The position numbers and the translations under genes are program-made. Of a stretch of DNA of 64,000 nt, positions 1,775 to 55,198 are shown piece by piece. Within the stretch, counting starts at the first letter, position 1. Each line of letters starts with the position of its first letter. This DNA comes from Escherichia phage vB_EcoM-ZQ3, in the sequence record MW630116.1. One strand, given 5' to 3'. The notes under the pieces were generated by a model. That model searched no databases. It worked only from the letters and a program-made list of their open reading frames with translations, and was not told the origin of the DNA.

Positions 1775-2953
1775 ATGAGTACAGTTTTTAACACACAACA
1801 AGTCGATGTTTTGAATGAACCAATGTTCTTTGGTTCTGGTCTTGGCCTCGCACGTTATGATATTCAGCGACATAAAGTTTTTGAAGAACTTATTGAAAAG
1901 CAATTGTCGTTTTTCTGGCGCCCAGAAGAGGTAAACTTGATGTTGGACTCTGCGCAGTTCAATAAGCTTCCTCAGTTCCAACAGGACATCTTTACAAACA
2001 ATCTTAAGTATCAATCATTATTAGATTCTATCCAAGGCAGGGCCCCATCTGCGGTACTTATGGCACTGATTTCCGACCCTTCATTAGATACGTGGGTTGC
2101 AACATGGACATTCAGTGAAACTATTCACTCTCGTTCGTACACTCATATTATGCGAAATCTTTATACCGATCCATCTAAGGTATTTGATGAAATTGTATTA
2201 GACGAAGCAATCATGAAACGAGCTGAATCAATAGGTAAATATTACGATGATGTTCTGGTTAAAACTCGTTATTGGGAAAACGCTAAAGCCGATATCGAAT
2301 ACCAAAAAGAAATTAATGCAGACGAAGACGTTATTGAAGATGCTATTGAGCATGAGACATATTGGAAGCGTGAGCTAATGAAATCTCTTTATCTTTGCCT
2401 TCATGTAATTAACGCCTTAGAAGCTATTCGTTTTTACGTATCATTTGCATGTACTTTCAACTTCCATAAAAATATGGAAATTATGGAAGGTAATGCAAAG
2501 ATTATGAAGTTCATTGCTCGTGACGAACAACTCCATCTCAAGGGTACTCAGTACATTATCCGTCAACTTCAATCTGGTACTGACGGTGATGAGTGGGTTC
2601 AAATTGCTAAAGAATGTGAACAAGAAGCAGTTGACATTTTTATGGAAGTAAATAGTCAAGAGAAGGAATGGGCTGCACACCTCTTTAAAGATGGTACATG
2701 TCCAGGTATCAATACGCAGAGTATGTGTGCTTTTGTTGATTACTTGACTGTGTCTCGTATGAAACAGTGTGGTTTGCCATGTCCAATTACTGATGCTCCG
2801 ACCAAGCATCCGTATCCTTGGATTCGTGAATATCTGAACTCTGATTTAGTTCAAGCAGCTCCTCAGGAAGTTGAAATCAGTTCTTATCTTGTCGCACAAA
2901 TTGATAATGATGTAGACCAAAATGTAATCAATTCATACAAAAAATATTTCTAA
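1775..2953 (+). CDS. nrdB: ribonucleotide reductase small subunit NrdB, uninterrupted (no intron)
   Basis: 392 aa (T4 NrdB ~388 aa); di-iron/radical helices (HSRSYTHI, ALEAIRFYVSF, ARDEQLHL); continuous reading frame. Confidence 0.9.
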   Translation: MSTVFNTQQVDVLNEPMFFGSGLGLARYDIQRHKVFEELIEKQLSFFWRPEEVNLMLDSAQFNKLPQFQQDIFTNNLKYQSLLDSIQGRAPSAVLMALISDPSLDTWVATWTFSETIHSRSYTHIMRNLYTDPSKVFDEIVLDEAIMKRAESIGKYYDDVLVKTRYWENAKADIEYQKEINADEDVIEDAIEHETYWKRELMKSLYLCLHVINALEAIRFYVSFACTFNFHKNMEIMEGNAKIMKFIARDEQLHLKGTQYIIRQLQSGTDGDEWVQIAKECEQEAVDIFMEVNSQEKEWAAHLFKDGTCPGINTQSMCAFVDYLTVSRMKQCGLPCPITDAPTKHPYPWIREYLNSDLVQAAPQEVEISSYLVAQIDNDVDQNVINSYKKYF

Positions 2954-2954
2954 G

Positions 2955-2979
2955 GACGGGACTTCGGTCCCACTTTATT
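2955..2979 (+). terminator. hairpin GGGAC-UUCG-GUCCC followed by U-rich tract after nrdB
   Basis: perfect 5-bp GC stem with UUCG tetraloop then ACTTTATT. Confidence 0.5.
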
Positions 2980-3390
2980 ATGAAAGATATCGCCGCCGAA
3001 TATTCCTTTATTAAATATACAGAATTGGAGCTATTAGAAGATGCAACAATTAAAACAGTTGATGTCCCTAATAAGAAAAATGTCATATATGCTATTGCTA
3101 TAGATGACGAACTTGTGTATATTGGTAAAACCAAGAATTTAAAGAAACGCATTAACTATTATCGAACAGCCATAAATCGAAAAGACCAGACTTCAGATTC
3201 AAGAAAATCACTTATGATTTTGGATGCCTTAATGCAAGGCAAAAAGGTTGAATTCTGGGCCCGCCAATGTTTTGACCTTTCAGTCACCAACGAACTTGGT
3301 TCAATGACCATCGCAACAATGGACCTTGAAGAACCACTTTTTATCAAAAAGTTCAACCCGCCTTGGAATATCCAACATAAGAAAAAGTAG
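2980..3390 (+). CDS. denA: endonuclease II (GIY-YIG family)
   Basis: 136 aa, same length as T4 DenA; GIY-YIG-like segment VIYAIAIDDELVYIGKTKNLKKRINYY; located between nrdB and rnlA as in T4. Confidence 0.8.
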   Translation: MKDIAAEYSFIKYTELELLEDATIKTVDVPNKKNVIYAIAIDDELVYIGKTKNLKKRINYYRTAINRKDQTSDSRKSLMILDALMQGKKVEFWARQCFDLSVTNELGSMTIATMDLEEPLFIKKFNPPWNIQHKKK

Positions 3391-11696: not shown

Positions 11697-11700
11697 TTTT

Positions 11701-11724
11701 AGGGAGACTTCGGTCTCCCTTTTG
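11701..11724 (+). terminator. rho-independent terminator
   Basis: GGGAGAC-UUCG-GUCUCCC hairpin followed by TTTTGTG. Confidence 0.75.
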
Positions 11725-11756
11725 TGCGTTTAGGGCAGAAAAAGTTTAAAAAAGAT

Positions 11757-32083: not shown

Positions 32084-33082
32084 ATGTTTAAGAAATACAG
32101 CAGTCTTGAAAACCACTACAACTCTAAGTTTATTGAAAAACTCTACACTAATGGTTTGACTACTGGTGTTTGGGTAGCACGTGAGAAAATCCATGGGACT
32201 AACTTCTCGTTAATAATTGAACGTGACAACGTCACATGCGCCAAGCGCACAGGCCCTATTCTTCCAGCAGAAGATTTTTATGGTTATGAAGTCGTACTCA
32301 AGAAGTATGATAAAGCTATTAAAGCCGTTCAGGAATTAATGCACACAGTTCGAGCCGTATCATATCAAGTATTCGGTGAATTCGCTGGCGGTGGAATCCA
32401 GAAAGGTGTTGACTACGGTGAAAAAGATTTTTATGTGTTCGATATCCTTATCAATACAGAAAGTGGTGATAATACGTATTTGACCGATTACGAAATGCAA
32501 GATTTTTGTAATGAATTCGGTTTTAAAATGGCACCAATGCTTGGTCGTGGAACATTTGATTCTCTTATCATGATTCCAAATGACCTTGATTCCGTCTTAG
32601 CCGCTTATAATGCTACTGCGTCAGAAGACCTTGTAGAAGCAAATAATTGTGTATTTGATGCTAATGTTATTGGCGATAATACGGCAGAAGGTTATGTTCT
32701 GAAGCCTTGTTTCCCTAAATGGCTGCCAAACGGTACTCGTGTAGCTATTAAGTGCAAGAACTCTAAATTCAGTGAAAAGAAAAAGTCAGATAAGCCTATT
32801 AAAACTCAGGTTCCATTATCCGAAATTGACAAAAACTTGCTTGATGTTCTAGCTTGTTATGTTACATTAAATCGTGTTAATAATGTGATTTCTAAGATTG
32901 GGACTGTAACGCCAAAAGATTTTGGCAAAGTGATGGGATTGACTGTTCAAGATATTCTGGAAGAAACTTCTCGTGAAGGTATTGTATTAACATCATCTGA
33001 TAATCCGAATCTTGTTAAGAAAGAATTAGTCCGAATGGTGCAAGATGTTCTGCGTCCTGCATGGATTGAATTAGTATCATAA
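32084..33082 (+). CDS. rnlB: RNA ligase 2
   Basis: 332 aa (T4 Rnl2 334 aa); nucleotidyltransferase motif I KIHGTN. Confidence 0.85.
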
Positions 33083-33086
33083 CGAA

Positions 33087-33112
33087 AAAGGGACCTTACG
33101 GTCCCTTTGTTT
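33087..33112. terminator. bidirectional terminator between rnlB (+) and gene 24 (-)
   Basis: AAAGGGAC-CUUAC-GGUCCCUUU hairpin flanked by A-run and T-run. Confidence 0.7.
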
Positions 33113-34395
33113 TATTCATCAATAATAATTTTTGGTAGCTTAACACCTAATAAAACAGACAAATCTGAACGTCCTGCCATTTTATCCATGTCCCCACCAT
33201 CAATTACTCTCGCTTCTTTTTCATCTTTTGCTACTGTGTAAGGATTCGCAGATAAAGCATATCTAACCAATAATCCGATAGATGGTTGCAAGCTTTCTGG
33301 ATCAACTACGACTTTAAATGCACCGACATGTTCCGGGTCATCTAAATCTACTCCTTCAGTGTATGGAGCATAAAAGATGGACCCCACAATTTCTTTTTCG
33401 CCGATATTTTCTACAACACCCACAATAACATAATCTAACGGACTGTTGGTATCGCAGTAAAGAGGTAATCCATTTGCCAAGAATCCATAAGCATTTTGTG
33501 AAAGATACTTGTCATCTTCTGGCTTATGTTTTAACCAACCAGAAGCAGCAAGAATAGCAGCTGCACGAGCTGAGGCTACACAAAACGTTGCAGTATAAGT
33601 TGTCTCTTTTTGAATGTGTGATACCATTTCACACACCATTCGATATAATGAACGACCTGCTTCTGGAGCGGATGCATAGCTCAAGTCAATAAATCCGGTG
33701 TCAGTAATTCCAGTAACTTTATAACGTTTCGATACAGTAATTAAAGACTGAAGAATATCTTTATTAATTTCATCAGCCATTTCAGTAGCAAGCAAATCTT
33801 CTAAGAAGTTAGGGGCATCAAATCCATTCGCTTCCAAATCTTGCGCTAATTCAACCGTGAGGCCAGTTTTAAGTTTACGAGATTTGACTGAAGTTTGCCA
33901 TTTATTAATCTGGAATCTTGCATCAGAAATTTCGCTATCAGAGCTTTCAAATTTGCTTGTTACCGCTGCATCTGAAAATAACCGTACCTTTAAATGAACG
34001 ATTGCAATCTGAAGAGCTAATTCTAGATCACTTTCTTGAATATCTGCAAATGGTGTATCTTCTAACACTTTATAGACGATATTATTATATTTGAAAAAAT
34101 CGCCTTTATTTAGTGTGACTTTTGATTCTTCTGTGAGCTCAGTAATTTTTTCTCGGTCTACATATCCAACTTCGCCCGCATAAGTAGCACCAGTTTTAAA
34201 TGTGAATTCGTTATCTGGGTTAAGATATTTGATACCATAAAAAGCAGCAACAGGTTGATTAGTTCTTTGTGTTGCTACAATGTCAGAATATATTAATTTA
34301 GTCGTAGCGCGAGTCAAAGCAACGAGATTTGGGCGACCAATTGAGTTGCTAATAGACGTTGTAGATTCACGCAATAATTTTTGGATTTTACTCAT
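33112..34395 (-). CDS. 24: head vertex protein (gp24)
   Basis: 427 aa = T4 gp24 length; capsid-like fold paralogous to gp23. Confidence 0.88.
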   Translation of the reverse strand: MSKIQKLLRESTTSISNSIGRPNLVALTRATTKLIYSDIVATQRTNQPVAAFYGIKYLNPDNEFTFKTGATYAGEVGYVDREKITELTEESKVTLNKGDFFKYNNIVYKVLEDTPFADIQESDLELALQIAIVHLKVRLFSDAAVTSKFESSDSEISDARFQINKWQTSVKSRKLKTGLTVELAQDLEANGFDAPNFLEDLLATEMADEINKDILQSLITVSKRYKVTGITDTGFIDLSYASAPEAGRSLYRMVCEMVSHIQKETTYTATFCVASARAAAILAASGWLKHKPEDDKYLSQNAYGFLANGLPLYCDTNSPLDYVIVGVVENIGEKEIVGSIFYAPYTEGVDLDDPEHVGAFKVVVDPESLQPSIGLLVRYALSANPYTVAKDEKEARVIDGGDMDKMAGRSDLSVLLGVKLPKIIIDE

Positions 34396-34422
34396 TGCAT
34401 TTTTTCCTTATGTGATATAGAT

Positions 34423-34430
34423 TATTTATA
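34423..34430 (-). promoter_or_regulatory. late promoter
   Basis: TATAAATA on - strand 28 nt upstream of gene 24 ATG. Confidence 0.55.
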
Positions 34431-34436
34431 AAGATT

Positions 34437-34466
34437 GTTTACAACGTATTTGGTATGTGATACTAT
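34437..34466 (+). promoter_or_regulatory. T4-type early promoter
   Basis: GTTTACA, 18-nt spacer, TGTGATACTAT. Confidence 0.7.
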
Positions 34467-34496
34467 AGACTTATCAACTACAGAGGAGTAAACAAA

Positions 34497-34766
34497 ATGA
34501 CTAAAGCACGTTTCTTACGAGACACTTTAAAAGTTCTGGAAGCTGAAGCAGTTAAGTTGGTAGAAAAATATGGTGCAAAAGTTAATGGTAATGCCTTCAA
34601 CAAAGTATGGATGAAAGTTGATTCTGAAGCTCGAGCTAAAGGTTATTGGGCCACTGATAAACTTGCATCATTCAAAAACAAAGATGGTTCTCCTGCATAT
34701 GTCCAAGAAGGTATGCCTAATTGGCAAAATATTTTGAAAACTTACATCGAAATTGCGCAGAAATAA
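34497..34766 (+). CDS. hypothetical early protein embedded between late genes 24 and 23
   Basis: 89 aa ORF, SD GAGGAG; early promoter upstream, hairpin terminator downstream. Confidence 0.5.
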   Translation: MTKARFLRDTLKVLEAEAVKLVEKYGAKVNGNAFNKVWMKVDSEARAKGYWATDKLASFKNKDGSPAYVQEGMPNWQNILKTYIEIAQK

Positions 34767-34775
34767 AACCAAAAA

Positions 34776-34795
34776 TGGGAGACCGAAGTCTCCCA
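34776..34795. terminator. hairpin terminator (T-run on - strand; terminates gene 23 transcripts)
   Basis: UGGGAGAC-CGAA-GUCUCCCA; on - strand followed by TTTTTGGTTTT. Confidence 0.7.
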
Positions 34796-34818
34796 AAATA
34801 AGATTTAATCAATTAAGA

Positions 34819-36387
34819 TTAGATGCCTTTTACATATACACGGCGGAAGTAAGCGTTCTTACCAAGACTGTTCAGGATAGACGGCATACCGGACTGGATG
34901 CGAGCACCTGGAGCCTGCAGGGAACTTTCAGCAAACGGGTTAACACCGATACCGTAACGAGTTTTAAAGCCCATTACCGGCTGGAAGTTCTTAGGATCGG
35001 AACCACGCAGTGGGGTAAGTGCAACGTAAGGAGCATAGTAAATACCTGCATCCATTTCGTTAGCGCCTTTGTAACCAACGGTGAAGTAATCCTGTTTAGC
35101 ATACTGGTCGATGTATACGCGGTATTTACCACCAAGTACACCGGCAAATACAGACTTAGTAGTGTCGGTATTAAAACCAGAAGCCAGACCCTGTGCAGCG
35201 TAAGAAATACCAGTATCAACCGAAGCCAGTACGTTAACTACGTTACGGGAAGCGATAATGAAGTTACCTTCACCACGACCGGTTTGACGAGCAATTTCAA
35301 CTGCTTCTTTATCAATCTGGAACAACAGAGCTTTAAAGCTTTCACCGGCCCAACGAGCACCACGGATATCAATCGGGTCCTGGAAGTCAAATACACCAGC
35401 TTTAGAACCAACGATATTAGTCATACCAGATTTACCAACCTGAGCGGAGTAGTTAATCCAGTCAACAACTTCACGGTTGATTTCCAGCATAATTTCAGTA
35501 GCAAGAATACCGCTCAGTTCAGCATCAGCATCCATACCATGTACTGCACGGAGGTCTTGTGCCAATTCGATGGAGTAAGCTGCTTTCAACTGACGAGATT
35601 TAGCTTCAATAACTTGTTTGTCGATACGGAAGCCCATTTCGTTCCACGGGTTGTCGGTAGAACCATTGAAGCCTTCCTGAAGTTCAGCGATAGAAGTAGC
35701 CATACCTTCAGCGATTTCTACCAGTGCACCAGCTTCCATTTGTTTCTTAATTTCAGCATCTAATTTAGTTGCATCGGTAGCGCTAGCATCAATTGTTACT
35801 ACAGCGGAAGCTTGTAGATACACAGTACCGGTGTCCTGGAAGAAGTGAGTATAGATATCACCTACAACGGTTTGTGTGCTAGCAGCCAGAGCTGGGAATT
35901 TCTTAGCAGCACCCTGACCAGAGAACATCGCGTCTGGAGCATACATCGGATGGAAAGCTTCTTTAGCGTCAGCAGCGATAGGGTCTTTACCATATACTGC
36001 ACGGAGAGCAAATACCTGACCGGTAGGGCTGTTCATAGGCTGAACACCACAAATATCAAAAGCGATCAGATTAGGAATAGCACGACGAACCATACCCATA
36101 ACTGCCGGCCCAATTTGGGTTACTGCACCAGAGGTTTGACCTGCTGCGATGTTCTGAGCATTATAACCATGGTCCCCACCAATTTCAGCTTCGGTCAAGA
36201 AAGAACCAAATGCCTGAGCGATTTTCTCGTCTTTATATTCAGGGGATACTTCGAAATCTTTTTCCTGGTTTTCGAAGATTTTAGCGATAATAGCCTGCTT
36301 GCTATTAGCGATTTCCGGCAGGCCTTCACCTTCCAGCAGTTCTTTCCATTTGTCTACGAGCTGAGCTTTAGTTTTGATAGTAGTCAT
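34819..36387 (-). CDS. 23: major capsid protein (gp23)
   Basis: 522 aa (T4 gp23 521 aa); high-expression codon bias leaving long spurious antisense ORFs. Confidence 0.92.
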   Translation of the reverse strand: MTTIKTKAQLVDKWKELLEGEGLPEIANSKQAIIAKIFENQEKDFEVSPEYKDEKIAQAFGSFLTEAEIGGDHGYNAQNIAAGQTSGAVTQIGPAVMGMVRRAIPNLIAFDICGVQPMNSPTGQVFALRAVYGKDPIAADAKEAFHPMYAPDAMFSGQGAAKKFPALAASTQTVVGDIYTHFFQDTGTVYLQASAVVTIDASATDATKLDAEIKKQMEAGALVEIAEGMATSIAELQEGFNGSTDNPWNEMGFRIDKQVIEAKSRQLKAAYSIELAQDLRAVHGMDADAELSGILATEIMLEINREVVDWINYSAQVGKSGMTNIVGSKAGVFDFQDPIDIRGARWAGESFKALLFQIDKEAVEIARQTGRGEGNFIIASRNVVNVLASVDTGISYAAQGLASGFNTDTTKSVFAGVLGGKYRVYIDQYAKQDYFTVGYKGANEMDAGIYYAPYVALTPLRGSDPKNFQPVMGFKTRYGIGVNPFAESSLQAPGARIQSGMPSILNSLGKNAYFRRVYVKGI

Positions 36388-36404: not shown

Positions 36405-37217
36405 TTAGAAACGAGATGCGACTTTCGCATATAAACTTACATTAGAATTCTGTTCTACCTGAGTTGTGGTAGTGTCAACTGCTTCGGCAACAAAATTAAG
36501 ACCGGCAGCGTCATTGTCAACTGTATTTATATTTTCGGTAATAGCGGCTTCTTCTTTAGTAGAACCTTTAACCATTTCTACAATAGCAGTTAACTTAGTA
36601 CCAAATGCGTCAGAATAATCCATACCTTCAACCAGGCCAATAACTTTTTCTTTCTGAGATTCAGTCAGGTCTTTTACGCTTTCATTAATAGCGGTTTCAC
36701 GCTGAACGTAATTGATATATGCATCACGTTTGGTAACTTCTTCGAACAAACGAGCGGTTTCTTCTTTATGTTCGGCCAGCTCTTCTTCCATTTCTGCTAC
36801 AACATCTACAGATTCTTCTGGAACAACAACGTTATGTTCAACAAACAGTTCTTTCAGACCACCAAGCATGGATTCGAACAAATCAGCTTTAATGCCTTTA
36901 TCAACTGCGATTTGGTTTTCTGCGAGCCATTCTTTTGCAAGATGGTCTAGGAATTTAGAAGCTTGTTCAGCCAATTTTTTATCAGCTTTCTCTTCAGCAT
37001 CTTCTTTGGCCTTTTCAACTTCTTCTTCGGCCTTTTCGGCGATGGCTTTGATATGAGATTCAGCCAGTTTGACTGCTTCCTGCTTAACGGTGGCTTCGAA
37101 TACAGTGCTGAAATTAGCTTTAACGTCCGGAGACAGTTCTACTGATTCGAAAACACTATTAAGAGCAACTGAAGTCTCGATGTTTTGAGCTTCTTTCAAA
37201 AGTTGTTCTTTGATCAT
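36405..37217 (-). CDS. 22: prohead core scaffold protein (gp22)
   Basis: 270 aa (T4 gp22 269 aa); Ala/Glu/Lys-rich coiled-coil composition. Confidence 0.85.
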   Translation of the reverse strand: MIKEQLLKEAQNIETSVALNSVFESVELSPDVKANFSTVFEATVKQEAVKLAESHIKAIAEKAEEEVEKAKEDAEEKADKKLAEQASKFLDHLAKEWLAENQIAVDKGIKADLFESMLGGLKELFVEHNVVVPEESVDVVAEMEEELAEHKEETARLFEEVTKRDAYINYVQRETAINESVKDLTESQKEKVIGLVEGMDYSDAFGTKLTAIVEMVKGSTKEEAAITENINTVDNDAAGLNFVAEAVDTTTTQVEQNSNVSLYAKVASRF

Positions 37218-54161: not shown

Positions 54162-54166
54162 GATAC

Positions 54167-54190
54167 AAAAATGGGAGCCCGAAGGCTCCC
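54167..54190 (-). terminator. rho-independent terminator after gene 8
   Basis: GGGAGCC-UUCG-GGCUCCC hairpin followed on - strand by ATTTTTG. Confidence 0.7.
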
Positions 54191-54193
54191 TAA

Positions 54194-55198
54194 TTAAAAC
54201 ATAAACAAAATGTTAATTTCTTCTGTTTGGTCCATTGCCATAATAACAGGTGGTCGGTTTTCCATATAAATCATTTCACCGGAATGACGCTGCAGATCTC
54301 TAGGGTCGTAATAATCCTTTTCTGCTTTAACATTAGGGTCATTTGGATTTTTCTTAGCTTCTAACGGGTTTGTGATAATTGATATCTGTCTAAAACCCTT
54401 GTTACCAGGCAAAGCTGCCTCAGGGAAATAAACAGAATCAAAATATGCTTTAAACCGCATCGTATTAGCTTTAACACGGTAAATCAAGCCGTAGTCATCT
54501 TGTTGCCAAGTTAAGTTATTTTCATATCCCCAACGGGCGGGGTCTTCTTTAATTTCTTCCGGCCATGGAACTACAAGATATTCGTTAGTGCAACGGTTAA
54601 TTGACACATCGGCAGGAATCTCATAAAGATACTCCCAAATATATCCATCACCGGTTTCGATAACCCCATTAGCATCGCCTCTGCCTTCAGGAGGAGACAT
54701 AGAACGAACAGACGGAGTCCATTTACCACCTAATTTAAGACATTCATCTTTATTATCTAAAGATTCTATTGAACAGAGCCCTACATCAGGGACATCTAAA
54801 CAACGGTAAATTAACCAACCAGCTCCAACTTCTGTCGCGTTGTACGGAGCAGTATTACATGCGACTATATCGTTAATTCTAAACGTGTAAGGGTCTGGAT
54901 ATCGCACATCTCCCCAATCACGTCTAGGAATAACAGAATCTAACATTGAAGGTAAAACTTTAACTGTACCCATCATATGGGTCCACATATCAGTAACACC
55001 AAGAACAGAATCTGTAGGATAAGGCGGGGCGAAGCCCACCTCATTTTCATTTGACGCCCAAGGCTCTGAACGTCCAAACGTAATATAAATGGAGTTCTTA
55101 TCATCTCCATCCCCAACTGAATTATAAAAATTCAGCATTTTCTCTGTTCTAAATTTTGATGTAACTATTGCACGATAGATAACACTTGAATCATTCAT
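54194..55198 (-). CDS. 8: baseplate wedge protein (gp8)
   Basis: 334 aa = T4 gp8 length. Confidence 0.88.
   Translation of the reverse strand: MNDSSVIYRAIVTSKFRTEKMLNFYNSVGDGDDKNSIYITFGRSEPWASNENEVGFAPPYPTDSVLGVTDMWTHMMGTVKVLPSMLDSVIPRRDWGDVRYPDPYTFRINDIVACNTAPYNATEVGAGWLIYRCLDVPDVGLCSIESLDNKDECLKLGGKWTPSVRSMSPPEGRGDANGVIETGDGYIWEYLYEIPADVSINRCTNEYLVVPWPEEIKEDPARWGYENNLTWQQDDYGLIYRVKANTMRFKAYFDSVYFPEAALPGNKGFRQISIITNPLEAKKNPNDPNVKAEKDYYDPRDLQRHSGEMIYMENRPPVIMAMDQTEEINILFMF

Follow-up and report, generated by a model that had tools for sequence, protein, structure and literature searches.

The interval between capsid genes 24 and 23 of Escherichia phage vB_EcoM-ZQ3 is best explained, with a probability of roughly 0.6, as a variable accessory locus in its endonuclease-free state, which T-even phages keep between these two genes and which would here encode an early, host-directed binding protein. 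The separate parts of this reading carry their own weights: the anatomy of the cassette at 34423-34795 is assigned with high confidence, and its 89-aa product is very probably an accessory early protein, judging from the sequence.

The window (64,000 nucleotides of record MW630116.1) belongs to a Mosigvirus, i.e., an RB69-like T-even phage, a classification taken from that of the retrieved records PhAPEC2, RB69, and mogra. The ORF-bearing interval recurs at a DNA identity of at least 90% in 144 phage records, and those sampled are Escherichia and Shigella phages.

Anatomy of the interval between genes 24 and 23

The left neighbor of the cassette is gene 24, which encodes the capsid vertex protein (33112-34395, minus strand; ORF list, with a gp24 homolog annotated in PhAPEC2), and the right neighbor is gene 23, which encodes the major capsid protein (34819-36387, minus strand; ORF list and comparison with PhAPEC2). 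Because these two genes and gene 22 (36405-37217) occupy the minus strand and the early gene rnlB (32084-33082) the plus strand, the plus strand of the window is the early strand. The preliminary description had placed a small cassette antisense to the late genes in a gap of about 420 bp; the gap measures 423 bp, and every element that had been described is present at its position. Two features lie close by. A bidirectional terminator-like hairpin (33087-33108), annotated on both strands in PhAPEC2, sits between the convergent rnlB and gene 24, and a tandem duplication of gene 24 is present in JS98, VR7, S16, and two metagenomic T4-like contigs and absent from the window.

A predicted T4-type early (sigma-70) promoter spans 34437-34466 on the plus strand, directly upstream of the ORF. 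The promoter scan finds TTTACA and TACTAT with a TGn element at 34438-34466, preceded by the G at 34437 that completes a GTTTACA -35 element; 9 of the 12 hexamer positions match, in addition to the TG. The promoter was thus correctly recognized beforehand, while the 18-nt spacer then given applies only when the count starts from GTTTAC, the distance between TTTACA and TACTAT being 17 nt. Across the window, 12 matches to GTTTAC-N16-19-TANNNT are found versus 3.9 expected; all of them are on the plus strand, and several share the -10 region GTGATACTAT. In an alignment of six lineages, the -35 element, the -10 element, and the Shine-Dalgarno sequence are kept while the spacer and leader vary. From this strong promoter, transcription would start near 34473, and immediate-early expression is predicted. 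The Shine-Dalgarno sequence GAGGAG (34483-34488, plus strand), assigned from the sequence and the alignments, stands 8 nt ahead of the ATG, and the ORF (34497-34766), which begins 31 nt past the -10 element, is indeed the Shine-Dalgarno-preceded 89-aa frame previously noted.

An A/T-rich, UP-like region upstream of -40 is a feature of T4-type early promoters (PMC1524935; PMC2988021). The corresponding segment here, 34418-34436, reads ATAGATTATTTATAAAGATT and includes the late promoter of gene 24. The latter, TATAAATA, was located by motif search at 34423-34430 on the minus strand (the plus strand reads TATTTATA) and is invariant in eight phages, including one, T2, in which the site is empty. 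Its position, about -50 to -43 relative to the early promoter, falls in the UP-element zone, which sets the two promoters back to back and suggests that 34423-34430 may act as an UP element for the early promoter. The cassette had originally been drawn from 34423; this stretch is the gene 24 late promoter and does not belong to the early promoter.

The hairpin GGGAGAC-CGAA-GTCTCCC at 34776-34795 (-13.5 kcal/mol, z = -4.6) is stable on both strands and, read on the plus strand, lies 10 nt past the ORF stop. The scan calls it a terminator on the minus strand only, where the whole element (34766-34795) consists of an 8-bp stem, a UUCG loop, and the tail TTTTTGGTTT, 23 nt past the gene 23 stop; the plus-strand tail, AAAATAAG, has no U-tract. 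The hairpin is conserved across lineages and is found in T4 and in the empty T2 interval. It is the terminator of gene 23 and not a proper terminator of the 89-aa ORF. Since it belongs by polarity to gene 23 and exists even in empty T2, the cassette is not fully self-contained, contrary to the initial view; the GC hairpin counted among its parts is real, but it does not terminate the ORF. Rfam gives nothing above threshold for the 23-24 interval, and its two sub-threshold matches both fall on this hairpin. Elsewhere in the window, 54166-54208 (plus strand) and 11698-11732 (minus strand) match the hairpin region (about 34764-34812) with 81-86% identity and are probably other terminators of the UUCG-loop type.

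The early promoter, the late promoter, and the gene 23 terminator are signals already predicted for RB69 by Nolan et al. in 2006 (PMC1524935). Their early promoter Pe:109605 (PMC1524935 supplementary files) matches the 34437-34466 element, their late promoter Pl:109573 (PMC1524935) matches the 34423-34430 element, and TransTerm placed the RB69 23/188c terminator on the strand of gene 23 (PMC1524935 supplementary files).

The 89-aa protein and its family

The plus-strand ORF encodes a soluble, hydrophilic protein of 10.1 kDa with a pI of 9.6. It matches phrog_6003 with E = 2.1e-45 over residues 1-89 of the 90-position profile, which 24/24 relatives also match, and is a member of this known, uncharacterised family, which also includes RB69ORF188c/189c, JS98 orf173, and VR7ORF190c. 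The gene is already annotated yet uncharacterised, and ordinary in kind. The pI lies between 9.2 and 9.9 in 23 of the 24 relatives; a basic pI is by itself a weak sign of nucleic-acid binding. Residues M1, K3, F6, G31, N32, N35, and Q70 are invariant in the family.

Structure prediction, suggested beforehand as a check, yields a confident AlphaFold2 model when built from 24 sequences (pLDDT 94.4, pTM 0.81), which supersedes a mediocre first model built from 4 sequences (pLDDT 77). The predicted fold comprises helices 3-25, 31-48, and 76-88 and a beta-hairpin formed by 52-60 and 66-70, but Foldseek finds no structural relative in the PDB and returns from BFVD one family member only. A sequence profile search of the PDB and a PADLOC search with the protein likewise give no match. 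Pfam contributes a sub-threshold match to DUF4859, nothing above threshold, and no family common to the 24 members. Homology searches find no characterised T4 relative, and comparison with known host-takeover and anti-defence protein families turns up no characterised protein that it resembles in sequence or fold. Paralogs of the ORF were sought within the window, and none was found. A 655-aa repeat protein (P0013), whose repeats presumably resemble cytochrome-b5-like domains, matches residues 49-70 five times and was rejected as a relative, the shared W-T-x-K-L-A...G-x-P-A-Y motif being judged a chance one. Two family members bear odd names, “NADPH-dependent curcumin reductase CurA” (P0006, from JGI) and “glycosyl hydrolase family 25” (PQ341120, EAWsc9), both of which are probably annotation errors.

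Codon comparisons indicate purifying selection on the ORF: relative to PhAPEC2, it has 5 synonymous and 0 non-synonymous changes, and deeper comparisons give a pS of 0.6-0.8 versus a pN of 0.2-0.47. The ORF also diverges much faster than its neighbor genes: its identity to Dhakavirus-type alleles is about 33-37%, whereas gp24, over its first 120 residues, reaches 66-69%.

The family is narrow, since an exhaustive HMM search of 1.84 billion representative proteins recovers only 8. JS98 (Dhakavirus) and VR7 (Gaprivervirus) have homologs with 31-38% identity, similarly placed and oriented. The ORF is found at this locus in three metagenomic T4-like contigs as well, with identities of 61-70% in two and 34% in the third (P0012). 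Family members are also found within long one-directional arrays of small ORFs in (i) Acinetobacter phage ABPH49, classified in Vequintavirinae, (ii) a contig related to Klebsiella phages of roughly 48 kb, where the gene adjoins a primase-polymerase, and (iii) other large phage contigs. The occurrence of homologs in the arrays of unrelated phages argues for an accessory early function and against a capsid-specific role. The Klebsiella-phage-like contig also encodes, 2.3 kb upstream of the family member, a 301-aa protein (776-1681) with T5orf172 and MUG113 domains, both of which are GIY-YIG-like.

The copy in the RB69 reference (NC_004928, 6211-6633 of the locus) has a +1 and a -1 frameshift together with a cluster of substitutions and is annotated as ORF188c and ORF189c, fragments of 41 and 29 aa. 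Because this reference copy is split by two frameshifts, the intact protein and its family went unrecognised in RB69. In phage mogra, the gene has lost 1 nt from an A5 run. Both phages are viable isolates, and sequencing error is possible as a source of these frameshifts. With the RB69 reference copy frameshifted, the gene looks dispensable, and in nature it probably is. A literature search with ORF188c, the accessions, and phrog_6003 returned nothing about the 89-aa gene and no transcriptome for the phage or the gene.

A variable locus shared with segD

Comparison of the 23-24 interval across T-even genomes bears out the earlier suggestion that this site accepts inserts. The interval is found (i) empty, at 81-109 bp with the hairpin and late promoter only, in T2, Klebsiella phage Roth04, S16, Acj9, and Margaery, (ii) with segD alone in T4, where it lies antisense between genes 23 and 24 as had been noted, and in Gaprivervirus TH15, directly behind a GTTTACA promoter, (iii) with the ORF alone in the window phage, JS98, and VR7, and (iv) with the ORF followed in tandem by a segD homolog in Dhakavirus IME08 and Mosigvirus LF82-9. 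Within the interval, the ORF family is thus represented in Mosigvirus, Dhakavirus, and Gaprivervirus. The idea that the small ORF stands in place of segD fits the window but is too simple in general, since IME08 and LF82-9 carry both. The two Gaprivervirus phages VR7 and TH15 share one sequence up to and including the late promoter and GTTTACA and diverge after it, each having its own -10 region; the cargo of VR7 is the ORF and that of TH15 is segD alone. In Krischvirus ECD7, the interval measures 736 bp (747-1482); the only ORF annotated in it encodes 50 aa on the late strand, long ORFs are absent, and its content could be a decayed insert.

The exchange of cargo is seen most sharply in LF82-9 (PV660452), whose two flanks share 94.6% and 93.3% identity with the window. 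Identity rises to 100% over the first 93 nt of its interval, a stretch that begins at the gene 24 start codon and takes in both promoters as far as the Shine-Dalgarno sequence. Beyond this point, 933 bp (locus 2094-3026) are unrelated to the window, and similarity returns at the hairpin. The cargo comprises an ORF that is 93% identical to JS98 orf173 and a SegD homolog that is 57% identical to T4 SegD. Its junctions are sharp, one at the Shine-Dalgarno sequence, so that the element at 34483-34488 doubles as the left recombination junction, and the other just ahead of the terminator. The whole cargo appears to have been replaced between genera, which is the pattern expected of endonuclease-driven co-conversion. 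A Mosigvirus backbone with a Dhakavirus-type ORF allele and a segD homolog is also present in ATK47 and LF82-4/-35.

The same comparison yields a candidate promoter for segD of T4 (NC_000866), for which a 2010 review reported that bioinformatic searches had failed to find a specific one (PMC2988022). The gene is preceded on the minus strand, at about 107253-107281, by TTTACA-17-TATTAT with TGn. This site has 10 of 12 hexamer matches, is the best in the region, and holds a position homologous to that of the early promoter described here.

The linkage to segD admits a different account, which we consider improbable, in which the ORF matters mainly within a segD mobile unit and its own biochemical role is secondary. 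The ORF would then be either (a) a resident gene that SegD parasitises for its expression, with the endonuclease-free allele holding the cleavage site, or (b) cargo that travels with the endonuclease and favors its retention. In IME08 and LF82-9, the two genes are indeed only 3 nt apart and segD has no Shine-Dalgarno sequence of its own, the entire ORF allele has been replaced along with segD in the Mosigvirus backbone, and in Gaprivervirus the two genes serve as alternative cargos at one promoter position. However, the ORF is present in about 240 phage records versus only about 38 with the SegD variant (at least 80% identity), and its homologs in the early arrays of unrelated phages have no adjacent endonuclease. 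Purifying selection on the protein also speaks against this account, as does the absence of homology between the ORF and SegD. Alignment to the SegD profile by hhalign gives a probability of 1.3% and Pfam no match, which separates the protein from the Seg family of GIY-YIG homing endonucleases; an origin of the ORF from a SegD domain was rejected on the hhalign result.

It is quite doubtful that the product of importance is instead an RNA that runs antisense into gene 23 and damps premature capsid gene expression. Such “anti-late” RNA is known in T4 from the older literature, and with no terminator on the plus strand, where the hairpin has no U-tract, transcripts from the early promoter would continue into gene 23 in antisense; the promoter is, moreover, kept with any cargo (ORF, segD, or both). 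Against this reading, T2, S16, Acj9, Roth04, and Margaery have no such promoter in the interval, constraint on the ORF is seen at the level of the protein, whose fold is predicted with confidence, its homologs elsewhere do not lie opposite late genes, and Rfam offers no match above threshold.

A part in head assembly, e.g., in chaperoning or regulating gp23 or gp24, is very improbable: the position between genes 23 and 24 is conserved in three genera and three members weakly match phrog_8765 “internal virion protein” below threshold, but the promoter is early-type rather than late and on the opposite strand, the ORF is missing in T4 and T2 and in most T4-like genera with the same capsid genes, unrelated phages carry its homologs well away from capsid genes, and viable RB69 has a broken copy.

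Proposed function and comparison with known systems

According to the preferred reading, that of an endonuclease-free accessory locus, the ancestral interval would have contained the terminator of gene 23, the late promoter of gene 24, and nothing else. A strong sigma-70 early promoter lying between them in the opposite direction would drive one gene, the product of which would be a basic, cytoplasmic protein of 10 kDa with three helices and a beta-hairpin, synthesised within the first minutes after infection. It is likely to be non-essential, and it evolves fast yet is under purifying selection. Since phrog_6003 members occur in the early-gene arrays of unrelated phages, it would act independently of capsid assembly. 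Its most likely mechanism is binding to an acidic partner macromolecule, nucleic acid or host protein, so as to aid host takeover or counter a defence. Genes for SegD-type GIY-YIG homing endonucleases would land at the locus directly after the ORF and could carry the ORF allele along between phage genera.

A role in host takeover or anti-defence, for which the protein had earlier been named a candidate, fits the early expression signals, the patchy distribution, and the dispensability, and we regard it as plausible, if tentative; nucleic-acid binding specifically is less probable than that. Should the protein turn out to act on the host or against its defences, it would introduce a small family of new fold, one that T-even phages, phages classified in Vequintavirinae, and Klebsiella-type phages of roughly 48 kb have in common. 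A bolder and rather unlikely proposal is that phrog_6003 is an unrecognised early effector with a new fold that neutralises a defence or a nucleic-acid/protein target shared among Gammaproteobacteria. Such an effector, if real, would explain both the exchange of the gene among at least three unrelated phage lineages and its adoption by a homing endonuclease as a carrier gene. Screens built on homology to T4 miss the phrog_6003 family by design. A toxicity screen of 45 early proteins in Mosigvirus AV110 picked its candidates by T4 homology, and the 89-aa gene could therefore not enter it. Whatever the function, the locus provides a clean natural series (empty, segD, ORF, ORF + segD) in which to follow the transfer of a neighboring allele between phage genera by a free-standing homing endonuclease.

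The closest known system is the segD locus of T4, which has the same interval, the same antisense orientation, and the same order of elements, from the late promoter to TTTACA-17-TAnnAT with TGn, the cargo, and the UUCG-loop terminator. Unlike SegD, the 89-aa protein is a third of the size and has no GIY-YIG motif, SegD homology, or nuclease features. RB69ORF188c/189c, listed by Nolan et al. in 2006 among “novel ORFs” with their own early promoters (PMC1524935), is the same gene, but its two fragments in RB69 correspond to a single intact frame in the window.

As in the morons of lambdoid phages, a single accessory ORF with its own promoter is wedged between two late structural genes and would be expressed separately from both. 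The likeness ends there, as the only terminator is off-strand, the GC content of the ORF (35.9% versus 38.0% for the window) is not atypical, the phage is lytic, and nothing points to a host origin; the cassette is thus not a moron in the lambdoid sense.

The small early proteins that T4 uses for host takeover or anti-defence include AsiA, Arn, Dmd, and Acb2/Vs.4, among others. The 89-aa protein resembles no solved structure in sequence or fold, those solved for members of this group presumably included, but it shares with them a size class of about 60-100 aa, early signals, dispensability, and a patchy distribution.
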